Source of the DNA: Desulfosudaceae bacterium
Lineage (GTDB): Bacteria > Desulfobacterota > Desulfobacteria > Desulfobacterales > Desulfosudaceae
Assembly: GCA_963674745.2 (NCBI GenBank)
Contig: CAXXDV010000003.1
Location: 1,760,001 to 1,824,000, forward strand
Direction: 5' to 3'
Length of the DNA stretch: 64,000 nt
The notes under the pieces: generated by a model
What the model was told of the DNA's origin: nothing
Seen by the model: only the letters and a program-made list of their open reading frames with translations
Database searches by the model: none
Part shown: positions 35,400 to 44,758 of the stretch, one piece after another
Position numbering within the stretch: the first letter of the stretch is position 1
How the letters are laid out: each line of letters begins with the position of its first letter
Made by a program: the position numbers and the translations under genes

Positions 35400-37328
35400 T
35401 TATCGGTTCAAACTACGAAGATCGCCCTGCCTGACGGTAAATCCGATTTCATCCAGATATTCAAATACCAGCGTACCCTTTGTGCGGCCAAAGCCCAGAA
35501 TCTCTTTGCTTGCCGCCAGATGAATAGAATCGGTGGTTTTTGCCGCTTCTTTGACACGTTGTTTTATAACGGACAAAGACATTGGCAAAATATAATGATC
35601 GAAGCTGATGCGGACCAGTTCACCGTGACGGCAAAGATAATCAACAATCTGTAGCACTTCTTTTTTACTGATGCGGAGACGGGTGGTATGAAAGAAACTA
35701 CCGATTGAAAACGGCGAATCTCCATTTGCTTCAGCAAAAGCGATAATGCGCCGGCTCAAACGTTCCTGATCGGCGGTGAGATCGCCCTTGAATCCCGGTA
35801 TGGTAAAATCAGAACCATGCTGGTGGACGTTACCACTGTCCACAAGAACCGACAACAAAAAATTGAGCAATGTGTCACTCATTGACGGCTTAAGGTAAGC
35901 CTTTATTTCTTCTTTATTCAGCATAGGGACCAGAGGATGTCCGGCCAGTCTGTTTGTCATGGTTGTGATAATGTTTTCGATATATTTTTCATAGTTGTCT
36001 TTTAGAAAATAACTACCGTCATCCAGCCTGATAATTTTTCCGTTTTTCGTCATAGCCGTCATTTCTATCTGGATCGTAGAAACCGACAGGCCGGTGACGA
36101 CTGAAATTTCGTTTACATCGATTGACCGATCTGCATATCGTTGCAGACATGCCATGATCATTTCAACGGTCCGACCGTTTTTCATGGCGATCAGAAAGTC
36201 GACGGTTTCATCGACATTGTTTTCCTCTAACGAAGTCTCAGATAATTCCAGGATCATACCGCCCCCGATTACCGTCAGGTTGTCCGACAATGTAATGACG
36301 AATCGATCTCCCTTCGCGGCCATAATCGTTTCAACCAGCTCTAACTGCACAAAACCGCTTTCATTTAGGGTCAATGATTTTGTCCGTATCATTTTCAACA
36401 TAGAAATTGTTGCGGTTGTCCCGACATATATAACCACCTGCTGTTCATCGACGACAGGCGAAAAAACTGTCAGAGCAGCATTAATATATCGACTTGTCTT
36501 CCATACGCCCGGCGCGGCCAGGGCCATACCCCAGACGACACTATCAAGAGGAATTCGAGGCAGATTTATTCCGACCCGTTGACCGGCAACGGCTTTATCA
36601 ACCCGAACATGATGGACCTCCAGTGAACGGGCTTTAGTGGTTTTGTTTATCGGCAGCATTACAAACGGGTCGTCAACACAAACCCTGCCTGAAAGAATCG
36701 TACCGCAGACGACCGTACCCACGCCGGGCTTGGCCGTGGCTTTGTCGATCCACATTCGAAAAGGATGATCAATCGGTTTTGGTGGTATTGTTTTCAAGAC
36801 ATCAGACAGACAAGCCATCACATCATTTTTACCGGCATAAGATACGGCTGAAAAAGAAACCACCGGTAAATTCTGTAAAAACGAGCTTTTGATCGCTTCT
36901 CTGACTTCATCCTCAGCCAGACGACTCAACTCTTCATCTACCAGGTCGGTCCGAGATAAAACAATAAATCCATGCCGAATTCCGAACCATCGCATTAAAT
37001 TCAAAAAAGCTATTGTCTGGGGCATTACGCCGTCATCCGCGGCAACCACCAGAATAACCATATCCACCCCACAAAGCCCCCGGAAACTGTCAAGCAGATC
37101 CCGCTGACATACGGGAATTTCGATCAGCGCCGCGACATTGCCAATGTCTGTTTTTAATGGCGTAACATCGCAGCCGAAGGATAACTCGGGCAGTGATCTC
37201 TCTTGAGGCTGCGCAACGGCATCTGTCCCGGTCAGGCAACGGATCAGCATGGATTTGCCGTGGCCAGTGTGACCGGCAACACCGACCGTAACCGCGGGTG
37301 GTTCATGTCGAATATTTTCTGTCTTCAT
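35400..37328 (-). CDS. SelB-like elongation factor paralog with degenerate GTPase motifs
   Basis: VAADDGVMPQT, GVGTVVCGT, AGQRVGINL and C-terminal EYLDEIGFTVRQGDLR winged helix; G1 GHTGHGKS, G3 EIPVC, G4 SRTD. Start placed at MKTEN. Confidence 0.8.
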   Translation of the reverse strand: MKTENIRHEPPAVTVGVAGHTGHGKSMLIRCLTGTDAVAQPQERSLPELSFGCDVTPLKTDIGNVAALIEIPVCQRDLLDSFRGLCGVDMVILVVAADDGVMPQTIAFLNLMRWFGIRHGFIVLSRTDLVDEELSRLAEDEVREAIKSSFLQNLPVVSFSAVSYAGKNDVMACLSDVLKTIPPKPIDHPFRMWIDKATAKPGVGTVVCGTILSGRVCVDDPFVMLPINKTTKARSLEVHHVRVDKAVAGQRVGINLPRIPLDSVVWGMALAAPGVWKTSRYINAALTVFSPVVDEQQVVIYVGTTATISMLKMIRTKSLTLNESGFVQLELVETIMAAKGDRFVITLSDNLTVIGGGMILELSETSLEENNVDETVDFLIAMKNGRTVEMIMACLQRYADRSIDVNEISVVTGLSVSTIQIEMTAMTKNGKIIRLDDGSYFLKDNYEKYIENIITTMTNRLAGHPLVPMLNKEEIKAYLKPSMSDTLLNFLLSVLVDSGNVHQHGSDFTIPGFKGDLTADQERLSRRIIAFAEANGDSPFSIGSFFHTTRLRISKKEVLQIVDYLCRHGELVRISFDHYILPMSLSVIKQRVKEAAKTTDSIHLAASKEILGFGRTKGTLVFEYLDEIGFTVRQGDLRSLNR

Positions 37329-37553
37329 AGACCAATAACCCCAAACAATCGCTATTCGGACGAGCAGTCTGTGTTGCGATTCGTTATCCAGCCGAGTAAC
37401 CAAACGCATGGGCGACCGCCGGGCGCCCATGCAGAGCTAGCCACGATGGCGAGTTGTGGGACAGGCTGTTCAGCTTTTCGCTTAACGGATTAACTCCTGC
37501 GCCTTGCAAAAGGCGCCGGGGATTCAGGTTCGGATCCTGTGAGATATTTTGGA

Positions 37554-37862
37554 CTAATCCGCTCCACAATTACCGCAACAACTGCCGCATCCCCCGCCCA
37601 GTTCCAGATTGGAAGTGATTTTAAATCCCCATTCGTTAAAATCAACTTCGATTGGTTGGGCTTTTATCAGCAGGTTTTTGTCGATGACATAAGTAAACTC
37701 ACCCATTTTAAATGACTTGTCCTCAGCCTTTTGTACGTCTACGGCCATGGCGAACTGAGAACCGCTGCAACCCTGGTTTAAAAAAATCCGTATCGGTTGA
37801 ACCTCCTTGCCTTCAAAGTAACGGCCGATTTCCTCATTGGCGCTTTCAGTTACATTCAACAT
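37554..37862 (-). CDS. IscA/HesB-family protein, Cys form
   Basis: MLNVTESA...IRIFLNQGCSGSQFAMAVD and a C-terminal GGGCGSC; RBS AAGGGGAG. Confidence 0.85.
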   Translation of the reverse strand: MLNVTESANEEIGRYFEGKEVQPIRIFLNQGCSGSQFAMAVDVQKAEDKSFKMGEFTYVIDKNLLIKAQPIEVDFNEWGFKITSNLELGGGCGSCCGNCGAD

Positions 37863-37904
37863 ATCAATTCTCCCTTTAAACACTGATAATGATCCTGACT
37901 GTTC

Positions 37905-38273
37905 TCAATTGCTCCTCTCAACCAGATGCAGGTTCTGCTGTATAATCTTCCGGTGCAGCAGGTGATTTATCTGTTGGCATAGATCCATGCAGATAAACCT
38001 CAGATACCGAGCCTGGCAACCGCGGTTCGGATCGATATTTTCCAGAAAATAATGAAAAAAAATCGTGTCCGGTCCCATGGTCTCAAGCAATGCAGTCAGC
38101 CGTTCGGCCAGCGGATAATAATCATCGATATCGACCGGCTCCAAAATGATTTGATTAACAATCTTCCTGATTTCTGAAAACTCGATTGGATGATCACGGA
38201 TCGCTGACTCTGATTTACTGATGCTAGCCTGACAATTCTGTACTAATTTTTCCATCGGCTTAATTTGACTCAT
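37905..38273 (-). CDS. Hypothetical protein
   Basis: 122-aa ORF with RBS, tightly packed in the operon. Confidence 0.65.
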   Translation of the reverse strand: MSQIKPMEKLVQNCQASISKSESAIRDHPIEFSEIRKIVNQIILEPVDIDDYYPLAERLTALLETMGPDTIFFHYFLENIDPNRGCQARYLRFICMDLCQQINHLLHRKIIQQNLHLVERSN

Positions 38274-38292: not shown

Positions 38293-39603
38293 TTAATAAC
38301 CCGGCAGATTCACTTCGGCCAAATCCGGCCACAGGTATGTTCTTTCGTTTTCGCCCAGTATTCCCAGAGAGAGGGCGATAATCGTCCATAAATGAACGGC
38401 ACGGTAAGCCCCATCTCCGTGATGTTCACCCAGTTCTTCGATCTGGGCATGACAGTTGTGGCAGGGCGTAATGACATAGGGCGCGCCGGTAGCCATTACC
38501 TGGCGGTGTTTCAGCAACCCATAAGCCAACCGTTGCTCTTTATAACCGGATTGCAAAAATCCGCCCCCACCGCCACAACAGAAATTATTGGACTTGTTGG
38601 GCGTTACTTCGATAAAATTTTCTTCACCGACACAGGTCTTAATAACAAACCGCAAATCATCTGCCAGGGGATCACCAAAGCTTTTGCGGACCTGTTGACA
38701 GGGGTCCTGAACCGTAAATTTTACCTGTAGATCTTTGTTCCAATCGGCGTTAACCTTCAACCTGCCCTCACGGATCCAGCGGGCGTAATACGGCACAATA
38801 GGTTCAATTTCCAGGTCGGTTGGAATGTTATGGCGCTTCTGGCCCATCCACACCGAATATGTGGCGTGACCGCATTCGGTGTTCAAATATACTTTGCATC
38901 CGAGTTCACCGGCTCTATCCAGCGATTTTTGGGTTACGGTCTTCCAGCCCTCATCATCAGCCAGAAACATGCAATAATTTTCTCCGCCCCAACCGACACG
39001 ACTGTAAGTCCAGTCCGCTCCGGCCAGATGAAGAATTTTCCAGAGCGGAACCATTTCTTCCGGTTCCGTTACAGGTTCGCGTGAATTCTGAGTCAGAAAA
39101 AAATGGGCATTCTGCTTATCGATCGGCGCCTGCAGGTCCTCCCACTCGGACTGCGTATCTCGGACTTCATCCAGTATATCCTCAACGACAAACTGAAAAT
39201 CATCTTCCGGTGTTCCCATGGCACTGCAACTGTCGTTTTTCAAGGCCATATCACATGAACCGAGAATCCCCCTGGGTCGTTCTTCCCGTGGCCAGAGCTG
39301 CCTTGCTTCATAAACAATGGCGGCGATATCAATTTCCATCGGGCAGACATGAACACAACGTTTGCACATGGAACACATCCAAACCCATGGATGCTTAGAT
39401 ATGGCATCTTCCATGCCCAGGGAAACCATACGCACGAATTTTCTCGGGTCCATGTTTTCCAGACCGGTCGCCGGGCAGCCGGAGGCACAGGCGCCACATG
39501 TCAAACAAAGATTCATGTTGGCACCATTAGGAATCTTGTTCATAATTTTTTCTTTAAAAGGTGAACTGACTTGCTCACTAATTTTAACCGCTTCAGTTGT
39601 CAT
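38293..39603 (-). CDS. HdrD-like (Fe-S)-binding CCG-domain oxidoreductase
   Basis: CLTCGACASGCP, CSMCKRCVHVCP, QDPC, CCGGGGG, PCHNC. Confidence 0.88.
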   Translation of the reverse strand: MTTEAVKISEQVSSPFKEKIMNKIPNGANMNLCLTCGACASGCPATGLENMDPRKFVRMVSLGMEDAISKHPWVWMCSMCKRCVHVCPMEIDIAAIVYEARQLWPREERPRGILGSCDMALKNDSCSAMGTPEDDFQFVVEDILDEVRDTQSEWEDLQAPIDKQNAHFFLTQNSREPVTEPEEMVPLWKILHLAGADWTYSRVGWGGENYCMFLADDEGWKTVTQKSLDRAGELGCKVYLNTECGHATYSVWMGQKRHNIPTDLEIEPIVPYYARWIREGRLKVNADWNKDLQVKFTVQDPCQQVRKSFGDPLADDLRFVIKTCVGEENFIEVTPNKSNNFCCGGGGGFLQSGYKEQRLAYGLLKHRQVMATGAPYVITPCHNCHAQIEELGEHHGDGAYRAVHLWTIIALSLGILGENERTYLWPDLAEVNLPGY

Positions 39604-39740
39604 TTCCTTCTCCTCTCTAATCCAGCGTTAAACTTTTACAGAATTCAGATCGACTAAAAAGGGTATGAAGCTTCGGCCGGTCTGATTTTTAGTCTTACAA
39701 AACCGAGCTCCGGCCGGAATCCTGAAACAGTCTGAAAATT

Positions 39741-39863
39741 CTAGATAGTGCCGATAAGGGGAAAAGATGAACTGCACATCGATTTTTCAGCTGCTTCAGC
39801 ACCTACCGAACCCGGGCAGGTTGGGATACAATTTGCTCAAGTAAAGCCGAAAAACCGGTACAT
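39741..39863 (-). CDS. Candidate selenocysteine-containing leader peptide (40 aa with read-through)
   Basis: ATG at 39863; MYRFFGFT-UGA(39837-39839)-ANCIPTCPGSVGAEAAEKSMCSSSFPLIGTI-TAG; hairpin ACCTGCC-CGGGTTC-GGTAGGT starts 15 nt after the UGA. Confidence 0.45.
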
Positions 39864-39893
39864 AAAATTTTGCCTTATAAAAATTTTGATGCT

Positions 39894-39968
39894 AATTTAT
39901 TGTGATGGCGCCTGAATGTCAAAGTGATTATATTGATAATTATAATAAATATTATTGATAGAATCTAT
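39894..39968 (-). promoter_or_regulatory. Sigma70 promoter with two LysR-like boxes (island promoter 1)
   Basis: ATAGATTCTATCAAT, 16 nt, ATCAATATAATCACT, TTGACA, 17 nt, TAAATT. Confidence 0.65.
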
Positions 39969-40051: not shown

Positions 40052-40666
40052 TTGATGACACGAAAACATTTTTTTACCATGGCCGTCATCGCCATATTGG
40101 CTTTCATGTTGAGTGGTTGCGGCTTTACCGCCATAAACCTGAACCCGGATGTGCCGATTATTATAAGAGCAGAGCCGGATTATCCTAAAGCCATTGTAAT
40201 ATTTGACAGCTGGAGCGGCAATACCACCCTGGTGGCGGAAGTAATAGCCGAACAGCTGAATGCCCCGGCTGTCTCGGTGGCCCAAACCTGCGATTACGAC
40301 ATGGCTGATTTTGATTTGATTGTCGTGGGGTCTCCGGTTCACGGCGGGCGGCCGACCGAAGAGATAAAGGCTTTTCTGGCTGAACTCCCCAAACCCTGCA
40401 TGTCAGCGGTGTTTGTCACCTTCGGAGCACCGCTGTTCGGGCCGATGACGGCTAACGCCTGCCTGAAGAAAATGGAAAAAAGCCTGCAGGGAACCAGCCT
40501 GGGCAAATTTAAGTGTCACGGACGCCACAAAATCCTCCGTACCTATCCCAGTCACCCGGATGAAAAAGATACCGCAGACGCAACACGTTTTGCTCTTGAA
40601 CTGCTCGATCGCTGCCAGAACAATAGCCAGTCAATATCGTCGGAGCCAATTGACGAAGAAAATTGA
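40052..40666 (+). CDS. Flavodoxin-family lipoprotein
   Basis: Lipobox LSGC; SWSGNT; VGSPVH. Confidence 0.82.
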   Translation: MMTRKHFFTMAVIAILAFMLSGCGFTAINLNPDVPIIIRAEPDYPKAIVIFDSWSGNTTLVAEVIAEQLNAPAVSVAQTCDYDMADFDLIVVGSPVHGGRPTEEIKAFLAELPKPCMSAVFVTFGAPLFGPMTANACLKKMEKSLQGTSLGKFKCHGRHKILRTYPSHPDEKDTADATRFALELLDRCQNNSQSISSEPIDEEN

Positions 40667-40726: not shown

Positions 40727-41728
40727 TCACTTATCCGTGGCAAAAAATTTTGACGACCCCTCCAATGTTTCACAGCCACATTCTTTAAAAAGAGCCTGAC
40801 AACTGGGGACGCTTTCTCCCCTTCCTTCTTCAGTTTTTTCCCGATTATCCCGGGGGTTAGCGCCGACTTCCGCCCAGAAAAGACTGGCCCCGGCCAAACC
40901 ACCGAGTGTACATGGTTCGTGGGTGCAATTACCCTTAACTGTTCGGGGCATTCCCAGTCGAGTGACTGCAACAATCTGGGCCATCCGCAATTCTGTAATC
41001 ATGCCCAGTTTTGCCATCTCCGTACCTGGAATGGAAATTCTCCGTGCCGCACCGCTGTAAGCCGGATTTAATGAAGCGGTCAACAGAATCATATCGGCCA
41101 GTTCTTCATTGGAATGTTCAGGACCGACCGGCTCCACACAAGTGCCCACCATTAAACCTGCTTCCTGAAAATTACGAATACTTGCAATCCTGGCCTCTGG
41201 ATTAAGGCCCGTGTCTTTTCCTTCTCTTAATCGCCTGGCGTGATATACCCCTGAATATCCGGCATCTTTAATCTTTCTGGCATTCTCCAGGGACTGATCA
41301 CCGATATTGGCGATCATCATGGTTGATGGGTCCAAGTTCTTTCTGATTTCCTGAGAAATCTCAATAAACGCCGAAAAAGAATAATTAGCCGTGATCATAA
41401 CATAAACCGCATTAGCGCCATCGGCTTCAAATTGTCTGGCATAAGCAATGGCATCGTCTATGCTGATAATCGTTTCATCTTGAAAAACACCGTTAATCGT
41501 TGCAAATGAACAAAATTTGCAATTGCAGGGACAGGGCGCAAGATTTAGGGCAAACTGGGCATGAACTTCCGCCTTGTTATCTGTCAGCTCCTTTGATATC
41601 CGGTTGGCTTCAGCCATGATTAGAAAAGACTCAACAGAATCCGATGGAAAACTAAGCATACGAACCAGTTCTTCGCGCGAAAAGCGTATGCCGTCCCCTG
41701 ATTTTTTTATCAGATCATCTATATGCAT
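40727..41728 (-). CDS. Radical SAM protein, biotin-synthase-like fold
   Basis: CPCNCKFCSF; CVEPVGPEH; GANPRD. Confidence 0.85.
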   Translation of the reverse strand: MHIDDLIKKSGDGIRFSREELVRMLSFPSDSVESFLIMAEANRISKELTDNKAEVHAQFALNLAPCPCNCKFCSFATINGVFQDETIISIDDAIAYARQFEADGANAVYVMITANYSFSAFIEISQEIRKNLDPSTMMIANIGDQSLENARKIKDAGYSGVYHARRLREGKDTGLNPEARIASIRNFQEAGLMVGTCVEPVGPEHSNEELADMILLTASLNPAYSGAARRISIPGTEMAKLGMITELRMAQIVAVTRLGMPRTVKGNCTHEPCTLGGLAGASLFWAEVGANPRDNREKTEEGRGESVPSCQALFKECGCETLEGSSKFFATDK

Positions 41729-41749
41729 TCAATAACCTCATAATAAATT

Positions 41750-41781
41750 GAGCAGCCATCGGCTCAAGCCGAAGGCTGCTC
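41750..41781 (-). terminator. Intergenic hairpin (terminator or mRNA stabiliser)
   Basis: GAGCAGCC-A-TCGGCT-CA-AGCCGA-A-GGCTGCTC. Confidence 0.5.
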
Positions 41782-41841
41782 ATCGTTATAACAACTTCTG
41801 TACGCTCTAATCAATGAATTTAATCAGCCCTTTTGAGCCGT

Positions 41842-44652
41842 TTATTCAGGCACACCGGTCTCCCTGTCATGTTCAGAGTCATAAGTCCACAAAAACCACC
41901 CGCCTTCATAGTTTGCGGCAGGCCAGCCAAGCAGATAAGCATAAAAGGTATATTGCGCTGATCGGGCGCCACCGCCGCAATAAAAATACATTTTTTTATC
42001 GGGTGACAGGCCGAGTTCTCTCCAATTGGATTCTGCAATGGTATAAGTTATAAACGACTGATTATTGTCACGTGGGCGTGCAATATCATACCAGTCGCCT
42101 ATCCATACAGCGGTCGGAATCCGGCCGTATTCTTCAAACCACCAGTAGTATGAATTCGTCTCACCGGTATATTCATCCCAGGCCCGGTCATCAACAATCA
42201 CCGAATCATGATCGATACCGTCAACAACATCTTCGACGTCTTCGGTCGTTGCCAGGTATTCCAGGTTCCCCTGTGATTCACCAAAATCCGCGACAGGGGC
42301 CCAGGCAGTCGGTCCTGTCTCGACCATGTATCCGCCTGCCACCCAGGCATCATATCCGCCGTTCAAAATGCGCACATCATCAACCCCGGCATACAAAAGA
42401 CCCCAGGCGATTCGTCCCGCGGTCATGGGCGTAATATCGTCGTCCGCGTAAACAACAACGGTCGTATCCTTTGTAATACCCATACTTGCGAAAAGGGCTT
42501 GAAGATCCGGAAGCGCTTTTACATAAGACTCACTCGGACTTGCATATCCGTCTCCATACTCGGAGCCTGGGCCGGTTTCTATGGAGTACGTATCCAGAAA
42601 TATCGCACCCGGGATATGCCCTTCCGTGGCAAAGGGGGTTCCGGTACCGGTAGTGGATACCTCGTTTGTTTCCCATCGCGGCCACCATGATGTAAAGACA
42701 ACGACATATCCGTTTCCGGGATATGTCGGCGGATTTTCGTCATTAATCAGCTGGTCTACCCAGTCCGGATACACCAGGGCCTGGTAATTGGCCATCTGTT
42801 CCATGGGGTAACAGGCGGGACAGTCAACAGAAGCCGTCGCCCAATCCATAATTGAGCCGTCATAATTTGAAGCCCGATCATATCCCATGAGGCGACAGAG
42901 GAAATACGCAAAACCACTGCGAATACCGATCGTGCAGTAGGATGCAACCTCCTTGTCTTTTGTTACCCCCCGGGATTCGTACAAATCCTTCATTTCAGTA
43001 TATGGCAGAAGGGTCTTGTCGGATTGAAAATTCCATTCATACGGGATCTGAACCGCACCGGTAATATGGCCGCCCCGGGCCTCCCCATATAATGTCCAGC
43101 CGTTGTATTCCTCATCGGTACGGGTATCGATGATCACGAAATCATTATCACCCATCCGGTTTTTAATATGCGCCCTGGTCGAGGTTGCATCTGAATCTGC
43201 CAGCGCTGTAAATGTTGCCCCGGGAAGGACATTAGCGGTTGTCTCCGCCTGGTTGCCGTCAGCTGCCCATTTATCCCAGCCGCCGTTCAAAATACTGACA
43301 TGACTGCATCCCAGCGACTCAAACATCCAGAACAAACGACCTGACGCGCCCCAGGAGGTGGTGGTATCGTCATAGATAATCATCCGGGACGTCCTGGTCA
43401 ACCCGGACTGCCCCAGCAAAATCTCAAGTTGCCCGACCGGTAAAAGCATATTATCCGCATCAACGAACGTCTGCCAGCGCAGGTTCAAAGCACCCGGAAT
43501 ATGGCCGTCATTATATGCATCCTCGCTTCTGGCATCCAAAATAATGACATCGGAGGAATTTAAATCATCGGCATCTGCCAGGAGGCTGTCGTTTGGATAT
43601 CTGCCCGGATCCCCTGTTTCAACCGGACGGGTCGGATCAGCGATCCAGTCGTACCACCCGGAATCCCAGTTCTTAACATCAATATAACCCATCATATAAG
43701 CATACCAGCAGGCGAATCCCGATCTCTGGCCGATGGTACAGATAAACGCAATCGTCTTGCTGTCCGTTACGCCAAGCGCTTCCAGCTCGGTCCTGACCTC
43801 ATCGAAATCACGCAGCATGGCATCTTCGCCGTCAACGCCGCCTTCGATCATACTGAGGTACGGATAATACAAGGAACCGGGAACGCGGCCGGGCGTGCTG
43901 ATGTATGAATGATAATCGTCCGCGCCGATATATTCGTCCCAGGTACGGGTATCCAGCATGATGGCACCGTCCGGATCATTCATGTAAGTTTCCATATCAG
44001 CGGTCGTGGCATTATATTTCGATAATGTCGGATCAGGTATTATTCCGGTGTACGTGACAGGTGTCCTGGCGTTTATTGCGGTTTCAACGGTTCCGCCATA
44101 TGCCTCCCAGGCGGTCACGCCGCCGTTTAATACGCGTACGTCTTCAACGCCTACACACATCAGCGCCCAGGCAACCCTGCCGTAGAGCGTTGCCCATTTA
44201 CTGCAGATCACTACGGTCATATCATGCTCAATACCGATTTCTTCCAGTTTGGCCTTCATTTCAGCCGGTGCCTTAAGGTTGCCACCGTCTGGTGTGGTCG
44301 GATTTTTTGTTTCTTCCTTATTTAACTCCCACCAGCTCACAGGGATGGCGCCCGGCACGTGACCGGCATCATATCCCCCTCCCCAGTTATCAAGATCAAT
44401 AATAATATATCCTTTTCCGGGGTAGTCATCAGGCGTTCCCGCTTTCCCGGGATTACCGCCTTTTATCAGCGCATCAACCCAGGCCGGGGTGACCAGCATT
44501 TTATGCATTCGTGTGTCATTGGTATTACCATCAATTTTTTTACTGCTGCTGCTACTGCCCCCTGTGCCGATGATGGCCACCAGGCCGATCAGAACAATCA
44601 AAAGCATAAAAGTATACCGCAAGATATTAGAAAAATGGACATTTCTCTTCAT
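41842..44652 (-). CDS. Exported multi-rhodanese sulfurtransferase (three tandem rhodanese pairs)
   Basis: Repeated GHxPGA and LNGG motifs; catalytic loops CTIGQRS, CTIGIRS and CGGGARS; start MKRN after AAGGAG. Confidence 0.88.
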   Translation of the reverse strand: MKRNVHFSNILRYTFMLLIVLIGLVAIIGTGGSSSSSKKIDGNTNDTRMHKMLVTPAWVDALIKGGNPGKAGTPDDYPGKGYIIIDLDNWGGGYDAGHVPGAIPVSWWELNKEETKNPTTPDGGNLKAPAEMKAKLEEIGIEHDMTVVICSKWATLYGRVAWALMCVGVEDVRVLNGGVTAWEAYGGTVETAINARTPVTYTGIIPDPTLSKYNATTADMETYMNDPDGAIMLDTRTWDEYIGADDYHSYISTPGRVPGSLYYPYLSMIEGGVDGEDAMLRDFDEVRTELEALGVTDSKTIAFICTIGQRSGFACWYAYMMGYIDVKNWDSGWYDWIADPTRPVETGDPGRYPNDSLLADADDLNSSDVIILDARSEDAYNDGHIPGALNLRWQTFVDADNMLLPVGQLEILLGQSGLTRTSRMIIYDDTTTSWGASGRLFWMFESLGCSHVSILNGGWDKWAADGNQAETTANVLPGATFTALADSDATSTRAHIKNRMGDNDFVIIDTRTDEEYNGWTLYGEARGGHITGAVQIPYEWNFQSDKTLLPYTEMKDLYESRGVTKDKEVASYCTIGIRSGFAYFLCRLMGYDRASNYDGSIMDWATASVDCPACYPMEQMANYQALVYPDWVDQLINDENPPTYPGNGYVVVFTSWWPRWETNEVSTTGTGTPFATEGHIPGAIFLDTYSIETGPGSEYGDGYASPSESYVKALPDLQALFASMGITKDTTVVVYADDDITPMTAGRIAWGLLYAGVDDVRILNGGYDAWVAGGYMVETGPTAWAPVADFGESQGNLEYLATTEDVEDVVDGIDHDSVIVDDRAWDEYTGETNSYYWWFEEYGRIPTAVWIGDWYDIARPRDNNQSFITYTIAESNWRELGLSPDKKMYFYCGGGARSAQYTFYAYLLGWPAANYEGGWFLWTYDSEHDRETGVPE

Positions 44653-44758
44653 AGCTGACTCCTTTGTCATAGCCGGGTAGTCCCGGTCAGATTTTTATTA
44701 CACTAATGAAGCCCTCGAAAACCGGTGCTCAAAAGATGTATGATGCCGTGAAATGTGT

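Follow-up and report, generated by a model that had tools for sequence, protein, structure and literature searches.

The 64,000-nt stretch of DNA analysed here (the window) is taken from contig CAXXDV010000003.1 (positions 1,760,001 to 1,824,000) of a Desulfosudaceae bacterium genome, GCA_963674745.2, and carries on its minus strand an operon with HdrD-like, HesB-like and SelB-like genes. Ahead of the operon lies a leader whose short upstream open reading frame (uORF) reads MYRFFGFT and stops at a UGA, followed by a hairpin that resembles a selenocysteine (Sec) insertion sequence (SECIS). A preliminary description of this DNA had proposed that the leader is an attenuator reading the availability of Sec-tRNA. 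The observation was confirmed: the features lie where they had been placed and do not arise by chance. The promoter TTGACA-17-TAAATT (39922-39894, minus strand), the uORF with a further 31-codon open frame to a TAG at 39741, and the 7-bp hairpin 15 nt past the UGA (39821-39801) are all present as described, and family searches agreed with the assignment of the downstream genes as hdrD-like, hesB and selB-like. In the window, the leader and its parts are arranged as follows.

39764-39922, minus strand: cis-regulatory leader segment, one copy of a conserved unit
39923-39938, minus strand: 16-nt motif, candidate transcription-factor site, diverged here (the window reads TATCAATATAATCACT)
39894-39922, minus strand: sigma-70-type promoter with 10 of 12 matches, TTGACA (39922-39917), a 17-nt spacer and TAAATT (39899-39894)
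39873-39876, minus strand: weak Shine-Dalgarno (SD)-like AAGG, 9 nt ahead of the uORF ATG, read in the sequence
39837-39863, minus strand: uORF MYRFFGFT (ATG at 39863-39861 and seven more sense codons) with its TGA at 39839-39837, from reading the open frame
39846-39857, minus strand: 5′ strand of helix P1, CGGUUUUUCGGC, within uORF codons 3-6, pairing with 39791-39780
39801-39821, minus strand: SECIS-like hairpin P2, a 7-bp stem 15 nt past the UGA, read in the sequence
Parts of P2, minus strand: ACCTGCC (39821-39815), loop CGGGTTC (39814-39808) and GGTAGGT (39807-39801), read in the sequence
39780-39791, minus strand: 3′ strand of P1, GCUGAAAAAUCG, purine-rich, the complement of 39857-39846 and paired in the minimum free energy (MFE) fold
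39741-39836, minus strand: read-through frame of 31 codons past the UGA, ending in TAG at 39743-39741, peptide not conserved
39720-39779, minus strand: G-poor, pyrimidine-rich tract after P1, including UCAUCUUUUCCCCUUAUC (39770-39753), which may act as a rut site or an anti-SD
39652-39716, minus strand: two crossing stems, 39716-39710/39680-39674 and 39694-39686/39660-39652, exact complements
39601-39617, minus strand: purine-rich ribosome-binding site (RBS) and ATG of the HdrD-like gene, read in the sequence

In this arrangement P1 encloses the UGA together with the P2 hairpin, and the helix was recovered by RNAfold. The preliminary description had pointed out that the leader could pair with the RBS of the next gene; this pairing is seen in the MFE fold, between 39770-39753 and the RBS ahead of the HdrD-like gene. 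The two crossing stems that it reported further downstream are exact complements but were not recovered as conserved in relatives, either by eye or in folds, and are taken as specific to the window copy. The window copy has no statistical support by itself, so that the case beyond chance rests on its relatives; its promoter, for example, is not significant alone (the region has 3 promoter-like sites, and shuffles give 2.5). The genome carries one leader copy only. Searches against Rfam 15 gave no match to the window leader at E-values up to 10, nor was there any Rfam match in the leaders of two other loci (L075 and L206). As the genuine SECIS elements of L102 and L206 likewise go unrecognised by the Rfam SECIS models, the negative result is uninformative with regard to SECIS.

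The same unit recurs in other genomes, and its parts recur together: an SD sequence, an eight-codon uORF of the form M-x-x-F-F-G-F-T, the UGA, a hairpin 15-19 nt further on, and P1. At three loci (L003, L006 and L008), orthologues of the HdrD-like gene that are of the cysteine (Cys) type have this leader upstream, with an ATG, two variable codons, FFGFT, the TGA, a spacer and a hairpin of the CUGCC-CGGGUU-GGUAG type. Of 401 genomes of the order, 37 contain the pattern FGFT-TGA...TGCC, with 41 matches in all, compared with a single match for a reversed-pattern control. We then used 27 of the 41 matches as the seed of a covariance model, R1. When 151 genomes of the order were searched with R1, 43 of them, from 39 of 109 genera, proved to carry the unit, with 58 matches in total. 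Across the phylum, R1 matched 11 genomes in a sample of 151, a figure that includes the window's own genome and one other genome of the same order. When a stricter pattern was applied to one genome per species across all bacteria and archaea, at least 116 stretches were found, and R1 confirmed 75 among the 80 matches listed. The confirmed cases among the matches listed belong nearly all to Desulfobacterota (Desulfobacterales, Desulfatiglandales, Syntrophales, Desulfarculales and Desulfobacca), plus single metagenome-assembled genomes (MAGs) labelled Geobacteraceae, Chloroflexota and Acidobacteriota. Named strains with confirmed copies are Dethiosulfatarculus sandiegensis SPR, which has three, and Desulfocarbo indianensis SCBM. 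The five listed loci that R1 did not confirm, in Serratia, Amaricoccus and MAGs of Bacteroidales, Actinomycetes and Verrucomicrobiales, were taken as chance matches, their number being as expected. For the analyses below we pooled 149 distinct copies, 62 found by the model and 87 by the pattern.

The conservation of the uORF is that of a translated reading frame, and on this evidence we regard it as translated. An in-frame start and TGA are kept in 59 of the 62 model-found copies; in the alignment of these 59, the ATG is present in 54-56 per base and the TGA in all 59, always right after ...G-F-T. Within F-G-F-T the variation lies mainly at third positions and shows a three-base periodicity, with entropies at the three codon positions of 0.12/0.60/1.05 (F), 0.21/0.00/1.09 (G), 0.12/0.21/0.76 (F) and 0.12/0.25/1.67 (T) in the model-found copies, and the Thr codon ACN uses all four third bases. 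The motif is broken in 14 of the 59 by single replacements such as GFI, GYT, SGFT, GFS and GFN. Insertions or deletions of 3, 6 and 6 nt all preserve the frame (MAYRFFGFT, MFAFFSFGFT and MFLFFGFGFT). Across all pooled copies the frame is present in 145 of 149 and is exactly eight codons long in 134, figures to which the pattern contributed 87 copies that it had required to have this frame and length. An SD-like 4-mer lies at positions −18 to −4 of 113 of the 145 uORFs, as against 8-15 of 145 in other upstream 15-nt windows. The weak AAGG noted in the preliminary description is thus indeed weak in the window, but this is a peculiarity of the window copy and not a general feature of the leader.

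Downstream of the UGA, conservation is of another kind. Read-through frames in relatives extend for 2-96 codons, and the hairpin falls in differing frames; since the peptide is unconserved, conservation after the UGA is at the RNA level only. This bears on another explanation, namely that M-x-x-FFGFT-U-... is a genuine small selenoprotein and the hairpin its working SECIS, for which the in-frame UGA and the suitable distance of the SECIS-like hairpin from it would speak. With a post-UGA peptide that lacks conservation, differs in frame and varies so widely in length, we rejected the small selenoprotein and give it next to no weight. The resemblance that had been seen between a UxxC motif, T-U-xx-C-xxx-CP, and the downstream Fe-S protein is accordingly a coincidence, the peptide after the UGA having no conserved sequence, frame or length.

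At the RNA level, both helices are well supported by the relatives. Pairing in relatives reaches 92-94% in the core of P1 and 80-91% in P2. In alignments of 51 and 89 model hits, which were fitted to the model and so favour the structure, 78-79% of cells are paired, compared with at most 55% when the partners are slid by 1-3 columns. Double changes occur at 18 of 23 pairs, and the covariation score was reached by none of 500 shuffles (alignments A3 and A5). A subfamily with DFGFT illustrates the compensation: in P1, UUUUUCGGC:GCCGAAAAA is replaced by GAUUUUGGC:GCCAAAAUC, and in P2, CUGCC:GGUAG by CUAAC:GUUAG, with the loop CGGGUUY kept. Across model hits the stem of P2 varies among CUGCC/GGUAG, CUACC/GGUAG, CUAAC/GUUAG and GCGCC/GGCGC, and the loop CGGGUUY is conserved. 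Comparison of upstream regions across Desulfobacterota, which the preliminary description had put forward as a check, therefore found the ATG-UGA frame conserved and the hairpin covarying.

Bacterial SECIS elements are stem-loops located about 11-20 nt 3′ of an in-frame UGA, with a G or GU in the apical loop that is read by SelB. P2 has both this spacing and this kind of loop. Its stem begins 15 nt past the UGA in the window, and in relatives this distance is 15-19 nt; the genuine SECIS elements of Sec-type HdrD genes begin at about 15 nt. The SECIS loops of the window's own genome (GGUCU, GGGCC, UGGAA, UGGCA and AGGU, on C-C/G-G closing pairs) are likewise G-rich, so that P2 resembles, in spacing and loop, the genuine elements of its own genome and of the Sec-type HdrD genes of relatives. 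A coding SECIS has a product that is conserved on both sides of Sec, and here the post-UGA peptide is unconserved; by its sequence features, P2 is SECIS-like and not a coding SECIS. A conserved, covarying structure in the 5′ leaders of selenium uptake and metabolism genes could also be a riboswitch for a small selenium compound such as selenide or selenophosphate, with P1 and P2 as the aptamer and the ORF incidental. We consider this very unlikely, because the structure is small, with two helices and only a handful of conserved bases outside them, its conserved loop agrees with SECIS loops of the SelB type and forms no pocket, and the codon periodicity, the SD and the exact ATG-UGA frame favour translation.

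To see what the leader precedes, we assigned the feature that comes first downstream of each of the 149 copies with ARAGORN and NCBIfam and then by BLAST against NCBIfam-named representatives, the last step having been added because the NCBIfam results reach protein 108 of 143. The first gene encodes an HdrD/GlpC-like protein in 29 copies, a double-cubane-cluster reductase in 16, the putative selenium transporter YedE in 14, an unnamed 157-aa protein in 11, an MvhD/VhuD-like protein in 8, and an HdrA-like protein, a member of the OS_HP2 (seleno)protein family or a formate dehydrogenase alpha subunit (FdhA) in 7 each. A tRNA-Sec-like gene comes first in 21 copies (anticodon UCA in 18, GCA in 3), with SelB next in 11. 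SelD (4), an ExtI-like porin (4), binding proteins (3), YedF (2) and a few others make up smaller classes; 13 copies were unclassified without a tRNA ahead, and 6 had no ORF in the sequence examined. By these assignments the genes downstream of the leader are selenium-related. Passages of a published study link double-cubane proteins and MtaA-like methyltransferases to selenium metabolism on bioinformatic grounds (PMC10418091).

The redox enzymes in this set are of the Cys type. Among those that could be scored, Cys occupies the position at which paralogues have Sec in 51 of 51 (HdrD 25, HdrA 7, MvhD 7, FdhA 5, OS_HP2 7); 11 further genes did not reach, or lacked, the Sec-position motif and stand outside the 51. 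The window's own genome has Sec-type paralogues of HdrD, HdrA, MvhD, FdhA, OS_HP2 and SelD. HdrD-like homologues were found in 39 of 41 related genomes searched, and 22 of the 30 loci fetched have an in-frame TGA at codon 243-246, where the window protein has Cys; the genome's own Sec-type HdrD paralogue is on another contig (G000:C1:1158543-1159838) and is followed by the canonical selB. No leader was found within 1.5 kb of any of 22 Sec-type HdrD-like loci or of the genome's own Sec-type locus. At other Cys-type HdrD-like loci, 3 of 7 have the leader, and a fourth has one 4 kb upstream, before a Cys-type FdhA gene. As a separate observation, codon 95 of the Cys-type HdrD-like orthologue of L005 (G034:C341) is an in-frame TGA, away from the position where Sec is usual; an error, a pseudogene or a further site of recoding could account for it.

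The tRNA-Sec-like genes and the SelB genes that accompany them form a second set. In four genomes (G030, G071, G035 and G122), a canonical SelB (372-385 bits) and a tRNA-Sec (75-76 bits) are encoded elsewhere, and a second SelB (264-303 bits) with a tRNA-Sec-like gene (52-55 bits) lies directly behind the leader; G069 has two SelB genes as well. The leader-linked pair is the published selC*/selB* pair. Passages of PMC5389517, PMC7609411 and PMC13582414 report it from Desulfobacterales and Syntrophobacterales as a Sec-shaped Cys tRNA with anticodon UCA or GCA that reads a UGA before a SECIS as Cys. L089 (G019:C128) and two other loci have a Sec-shaped GCA tRNA right behind the leader, which matches the GCA form of tRNA-ReC described in those passages. 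Two loci, L072 (G030:C100) and L073 (G034:C136), have degenerate tRNA-Sec-like remnants about 120-200 nt past the leader UGA and before a protein gene, and ARAGORN does not detect a tRNA in L073. Such remnants point to duplication of leader-plus-selC* units followed by decay of the tRNA. Leaders also occur in pairs on opposite strands, 300-500 nt apart and each with its own operon, as at L059/L084 (G127:C230), L051 (G027:C31), L091 (G122:C1) and L061. Such back-to-back leaders precede, for example, an HdrA-like gene and an unseen gene, an HdrD-like gene and OS_HP2, or an HdrD-like gene and selC*-selB*.

With selB-type genes downstream of the leader in at least 12 copies and a hairpin of SECIS-like shape with a conserved loop, P2 could be an operator for SelB or SelB* that works without translation of the uORF, free SelB or SelB·Sec-tRNA repressing or stabilising the transcript, as is reported for the SECIS-like element of the E. 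coli selAB leader. Such an operator is unlikely in our estimation, since it leaves unexplained the SD, the ATG, the in-frame UGA, the fixed length of eight codons, the in-frame indels and the third-position variation of F-G-F-T, as well as the overlap of P1 with the coding part. The conserved end of the nascent peptide beside a UGA stop resembles leaders of the tnaC type, and the unit might be a general sensor of UGA termination or release factor 2 (RF2), or a stalling peptide that answers to a signal other than selenium. Against a sensor of this general kind stand the genes behind the leader, nearly all of them selenium-related, and the SECIS-like form of the hairpin, and we hold it to be very unlikely.

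We consider it probable, from the combined sequence evidence, that the leader is a ribosome-mediated attenuator that senses the decoding of its own UGA by SelB and Sec-tRNA and turns on a selenium-starvation regulon. The proposal of the preliminary description is supported in this respect by the conserved frame, the covarying hairpin and the selenium-related genes downstream; the function itself is inferred. With the UGA in the A site, the 5′ strand of P1, 6-17 nt upstream, is inside the ribosome, and the hairpin, at least 15 nt downstream, is folded as it is at a real Sec codon. A ribosome would start at the SD and ATG, read the uORF to the UGA and await SelB·GTP·Sec-tRNA(Sec). With Sec-tRNA available, the UGA would be decoded and the ribosome would end at a nearby, non-conserved stop and leave, upon which P1 would re-form and the operon would be off. 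With Sec-tRNA scarce, the ribosome would dwell on the UGA, hold the 5′ strand of P1 and so free its purine-rich 3′ strand. A long dwell is needed because some read-through frames stop 2-5 codons past the UGA, and we propose that the F-G-F-T end of the nascent peptide slows release by RF2. The freed 3′ strand would then engage the G-poor pyrimidine tract or alter its accessibility, allowing transcription and/or translation into the operon. Our preferred guess for this output step is Rho-dependent termination at the pyrimidine tract, with a structure switch or masking of the RBS as alternatives; in the window, the same tract may also mask the RBS of the HdrD-like gene. The first gene is a tRNA in 21 of the 149 copies, so control would have to act at least partly on the transcript, through termination or stability.

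The direction of control follows from the regulon: as this consists of Cys-isoenzymes, uptake genes and the Cys-recoding pair, with no Sec-type redox enzyme, its composition argues for a switch that is on when Sec decoding fails. The regulon would have three parts, namely uptake and activation (YedE, YedF, the ExtI-like porin, binding proteins and SelD), selC*/selB*, and the Cys-type isoenzymes. In the window, the outputs would be the Cys-type HdrD-like protein, the 122-aa protein, the HesB-like protein and what appears to be a decayed SelB*.

When we examined the region after P1 for the output step, we found that positions +60 to +99 after the UGA contain 12-13% G, with a C/G ratio of 2.0-2.5 that falls to about 0.9 from +140 on (144 leaders). 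One subfamily only (12 copies, by eye) shares an extra block about 90-97 nt past the UGA. The G-poor tract speaks for the proposed attenuator, and so does the freed 3′ strand of P1, which can pair with the next 90 nt somewhat better than shuffles do (−14.0 kcal/mol compared with −12.5, a mean z of −0.66), although this excess is modest and the sequences are related. Other results on this region count against the attenuator: no canonical intrinsic terminator was found in the window, no conserved antiterminator was found, and when 144 leaders were folded with the ribosome site masked, the alternative structures were not consistent. Several points on the leader itself also raise doubt. Its fold in the window is not significant alone (z −1.56; 8 of 100 shuffles fold equally well), and the window's own SD is the weak AAGG. 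In some copies the frame stops 2-5 codons past the UGA, and the dwell that this demands rests only on the conservation of F-G-F-T; the R1 seed, moreover, allowed only synonymous F-G-F-T codons, an ascertainment bias toward third-position change, despite which 14 of the 59 model-found copies break the motif. Finally, the four leader-linked SelD genes (L206, L203, L140 and L115) are of the Sec type, G-x-G-U-x-[ST]-K. Such a SelD needs the scarce Sec, or insertion of Cys by selC*/selB*, which is compatible with a selenium-starvation regulon and awkward for it.

A further point of this kind comes from the promoter region. Of 126 leaders, 83 have TTGACA in the 120 nt ahead of the uORF, where shuffles would give 4.6, and it mostly lies 61-80 nt before the uORF ATG. 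Just upstream of it, relatives share a 16-nt motif, TATCGGAAWWTCCAGT (an inverted repeat, GGAA-N-TTCC) or TATAGATATTATCGAA, at L045, L046, L049, L053, L066, L072, L075, L076, L089, L099 and others. From its sequence and position, the motif looks like a putative transcription-factor site common to the regulon. An operator-like motif could explain co-regulation without the leader, and in this sense it also tells against attenuation.

In the leaders of trp, his and thr, of erm and cat, and of tnaC, the position of a ribosome on a short ORF selects between RNA conformations. The present unit shares with leader-peptide attenuators an SD-led short 5′ ORF, a fixed diagnostic codon (here TGA) and an RNA helix that overlaps the ORF; with E. 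coli tnaC it shares a decisive UGA stop beside a conserved end of the nascent peptide, and a Rho-type output is plausible here. It departs from them in its diagnostic codon, a UGA with recoding by way of a SECIS-like hairpin, and in what is sensed, which would be SelB·Sec-tRNA(Sec) and not a canonical aminoacyl-tRNA or a free amino acid; no terminator/antiterminator pair was identified, and no Rfam leader family matches. A SECIS-like element bound by SelB has reportedly been described in the 5′ leader of E. coli selAB by Thanbichler and Bock in 2002. Both elements are SECIS mimics outside a selenoprotein gene that would couple expression of the Sec machinery to the state of SelB, as is reported for the E. 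coli one. The E. coli element is not known to have a translated uORF with an in-frame UGA, whereas in the present unit conservation extends to the UGA, the frame and the peptide, and the regulon reaches far past the sel genes. The leader is attenuator-like, with a SECIS mimic and a recoded stop as its proposed sensor codon, and matches no Rfam family.

With the selAB element, the closest precedent comes from a spirochaete. Passages of PMC3892789 report that in fdhF(Sec) of Treponema primitia, failed UGA-SECIS decoding uncouples translation from transcription and truncates the transcript, which the authors liken to attenuation; they also describe a leader-type attenuator for a rare amino acid as engineered and not reported in nature. 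The T. primitia event, as presented there, takes place inside a selenoprotein gene and turns it off without selenium, whereas here the leader is dedicated and the regulon implies the opposite sign. In Methanococcus, a selenium-responsive switch between Sec- and Cys-isoforms is described in the abstract of PMC11097638, with Vhu/Vhc mentioned in PMC2702500. The logic is the same, Cys-isoenzymes replacing selenoproteins at low selenium; the Methanococcus switch differs in being archaeal and is reportedly controlled by a transcription factor and not by a UGA-bearing leader.

For the selC*/selB* system, which may include cysS* and whose tRNA is tRNA-ReC (Mukai et al. 2017, PMC5389517; review PMC7609411; PMC13582414, citing Vargas-Rodriguez 2018), the same gene pair stands behind at least 11 leaders, and the window SelB-like protein falls in the same clade. 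What these publications cover, in the passages seen, is the tRNA, SelB* and CysRS*. Those passages of PMC5389517, PMC7609411 and PMC13582414 and one supplementary file of PMC5389517 make no mention of an upstream leader or of regulation, and the word SECIS is absent from the main text of PMC5389517. No description of a UGA/SECIS leader was found in the full-text literature searched, most subscription journals being outside the search.

The genes of the window operon are the following.

38293-39603, minus strand: HdrD/GlpC-like CCG/4Fe-4S protein, Cys-type (family search and homologue comparison)
37905-38273, minus strand: 122-aa protein of no family, which recurs after HdrD-like genes in relatives
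37554-37883, minus strand: IscA/HesB-family protein, NF038090 (IscA_HesB_Se), 97.5 bits against a cut-off of 85
35400-37430, minus strand: SelB-like protein of the selB* clade (TIGR00475), likely true start at 37328

For the 122-aa protein, neither Pfam nor NCBIfam gave a match; L003, L005, L062 and L067 have similar ORFs after their HdrD-like genes. The 157-aa family (first seen at L055:1830-2300) likewise has no Pfam or NCBIfam match and recurs in leader operons beside HdrD-like genes. Both families are candidates for selenium-related functions.

The SelB-like protein scores 239.9 bits over its whole length with TIGR00475, against a cut-off of 242.25. Its identity is 41-44% to leader-associated SelB proteins and 29% to the genome's own canonical SelB, and by this comparison it belongs to the SelB* clade. 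Its GTPase motifs are partly altered: the P-loop GHTGHGKS is kept, the switch II/G3 motif DVPGH is changed to EIPVCQ, and the G4 motif (NKxD-type) SKTD to SRTD. There is no tRNA in the window, and the genome has a single tRNA-Sec above the cut-off and no partner selC*. A SelB* has intact GTPase motifs and an adjacent selC* tRNA, and the window protein has neither; to judge from its sequence it looks like a decayed SelB*, and may represent an RNA-binding SelB paralogue that is decaying or has been repurposed.

Upstream of the leader, the minus strand encodes a 942-aa protein with six rhodanese domains (41842-44670) and then a radical SAM protein (40727-41728); a divergent flavodoxin-like lipoprotein gene (40052-40666, plus strand) adjoins this pair. 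A strong 15-bp hairpin between the rhodanese and radical SAM genes (41733-41811), with sub-threshold Rfam hits to BSnc120 and psRNA14, is probably a terminator.

A broader reading, which we offer tentatively and would place a little short of even, is that the leader is the master switch of a Desulfobacterota selenium-starvation programme and a homeostat of total UGA-decoding capacity that changes the meaning of a UGA with a SECIS. When Sec-tRNA fails to decode the leader UGA, selenium scavenging, the Cys-isoenzymes and the selC*/selB* pair would be switched on, the last inserting Cys at UGA codons in the mRNAs of selenoproteins. Decoding of the leader UGA by SelB*·Cys-tRNA would in turn shut the system down again, and F-G-F-T would act as a novel stalling motif, refractory to RF2, through which a stop codon waits for its recoding factor.

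The attenuator that we propose suggests a natural counterpart of the attenuators engineered for non-canonical amino acids, and the leader could serve as a compact biosensor for selenium or Sec-tRNA. It defines a selenium regulon from sequence alone, and this regulon supports a role in selenium biology for the double-cubane reductases, OS_HP2, DoxX-like proteins, the 157-aa proteins and the 122-aa protein of the window. To the Cys recoding by selC*/selB* it would give a physiological trigger. According to passages of the Desulfobacterium autotrophicum genome paper (PMC2702500), it is only speculated there that Cys paralogues serve under selenium limitation, and a comparative-genomics abstract (PMC5322559) describes the network that regulates selenium homeostasis as not understood. 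To the question of how bacteria sense selenium and choose between a selenoprotein and its Cys back-up, the leader would offer a concrete answer in which the recoding event itself is the sensor.

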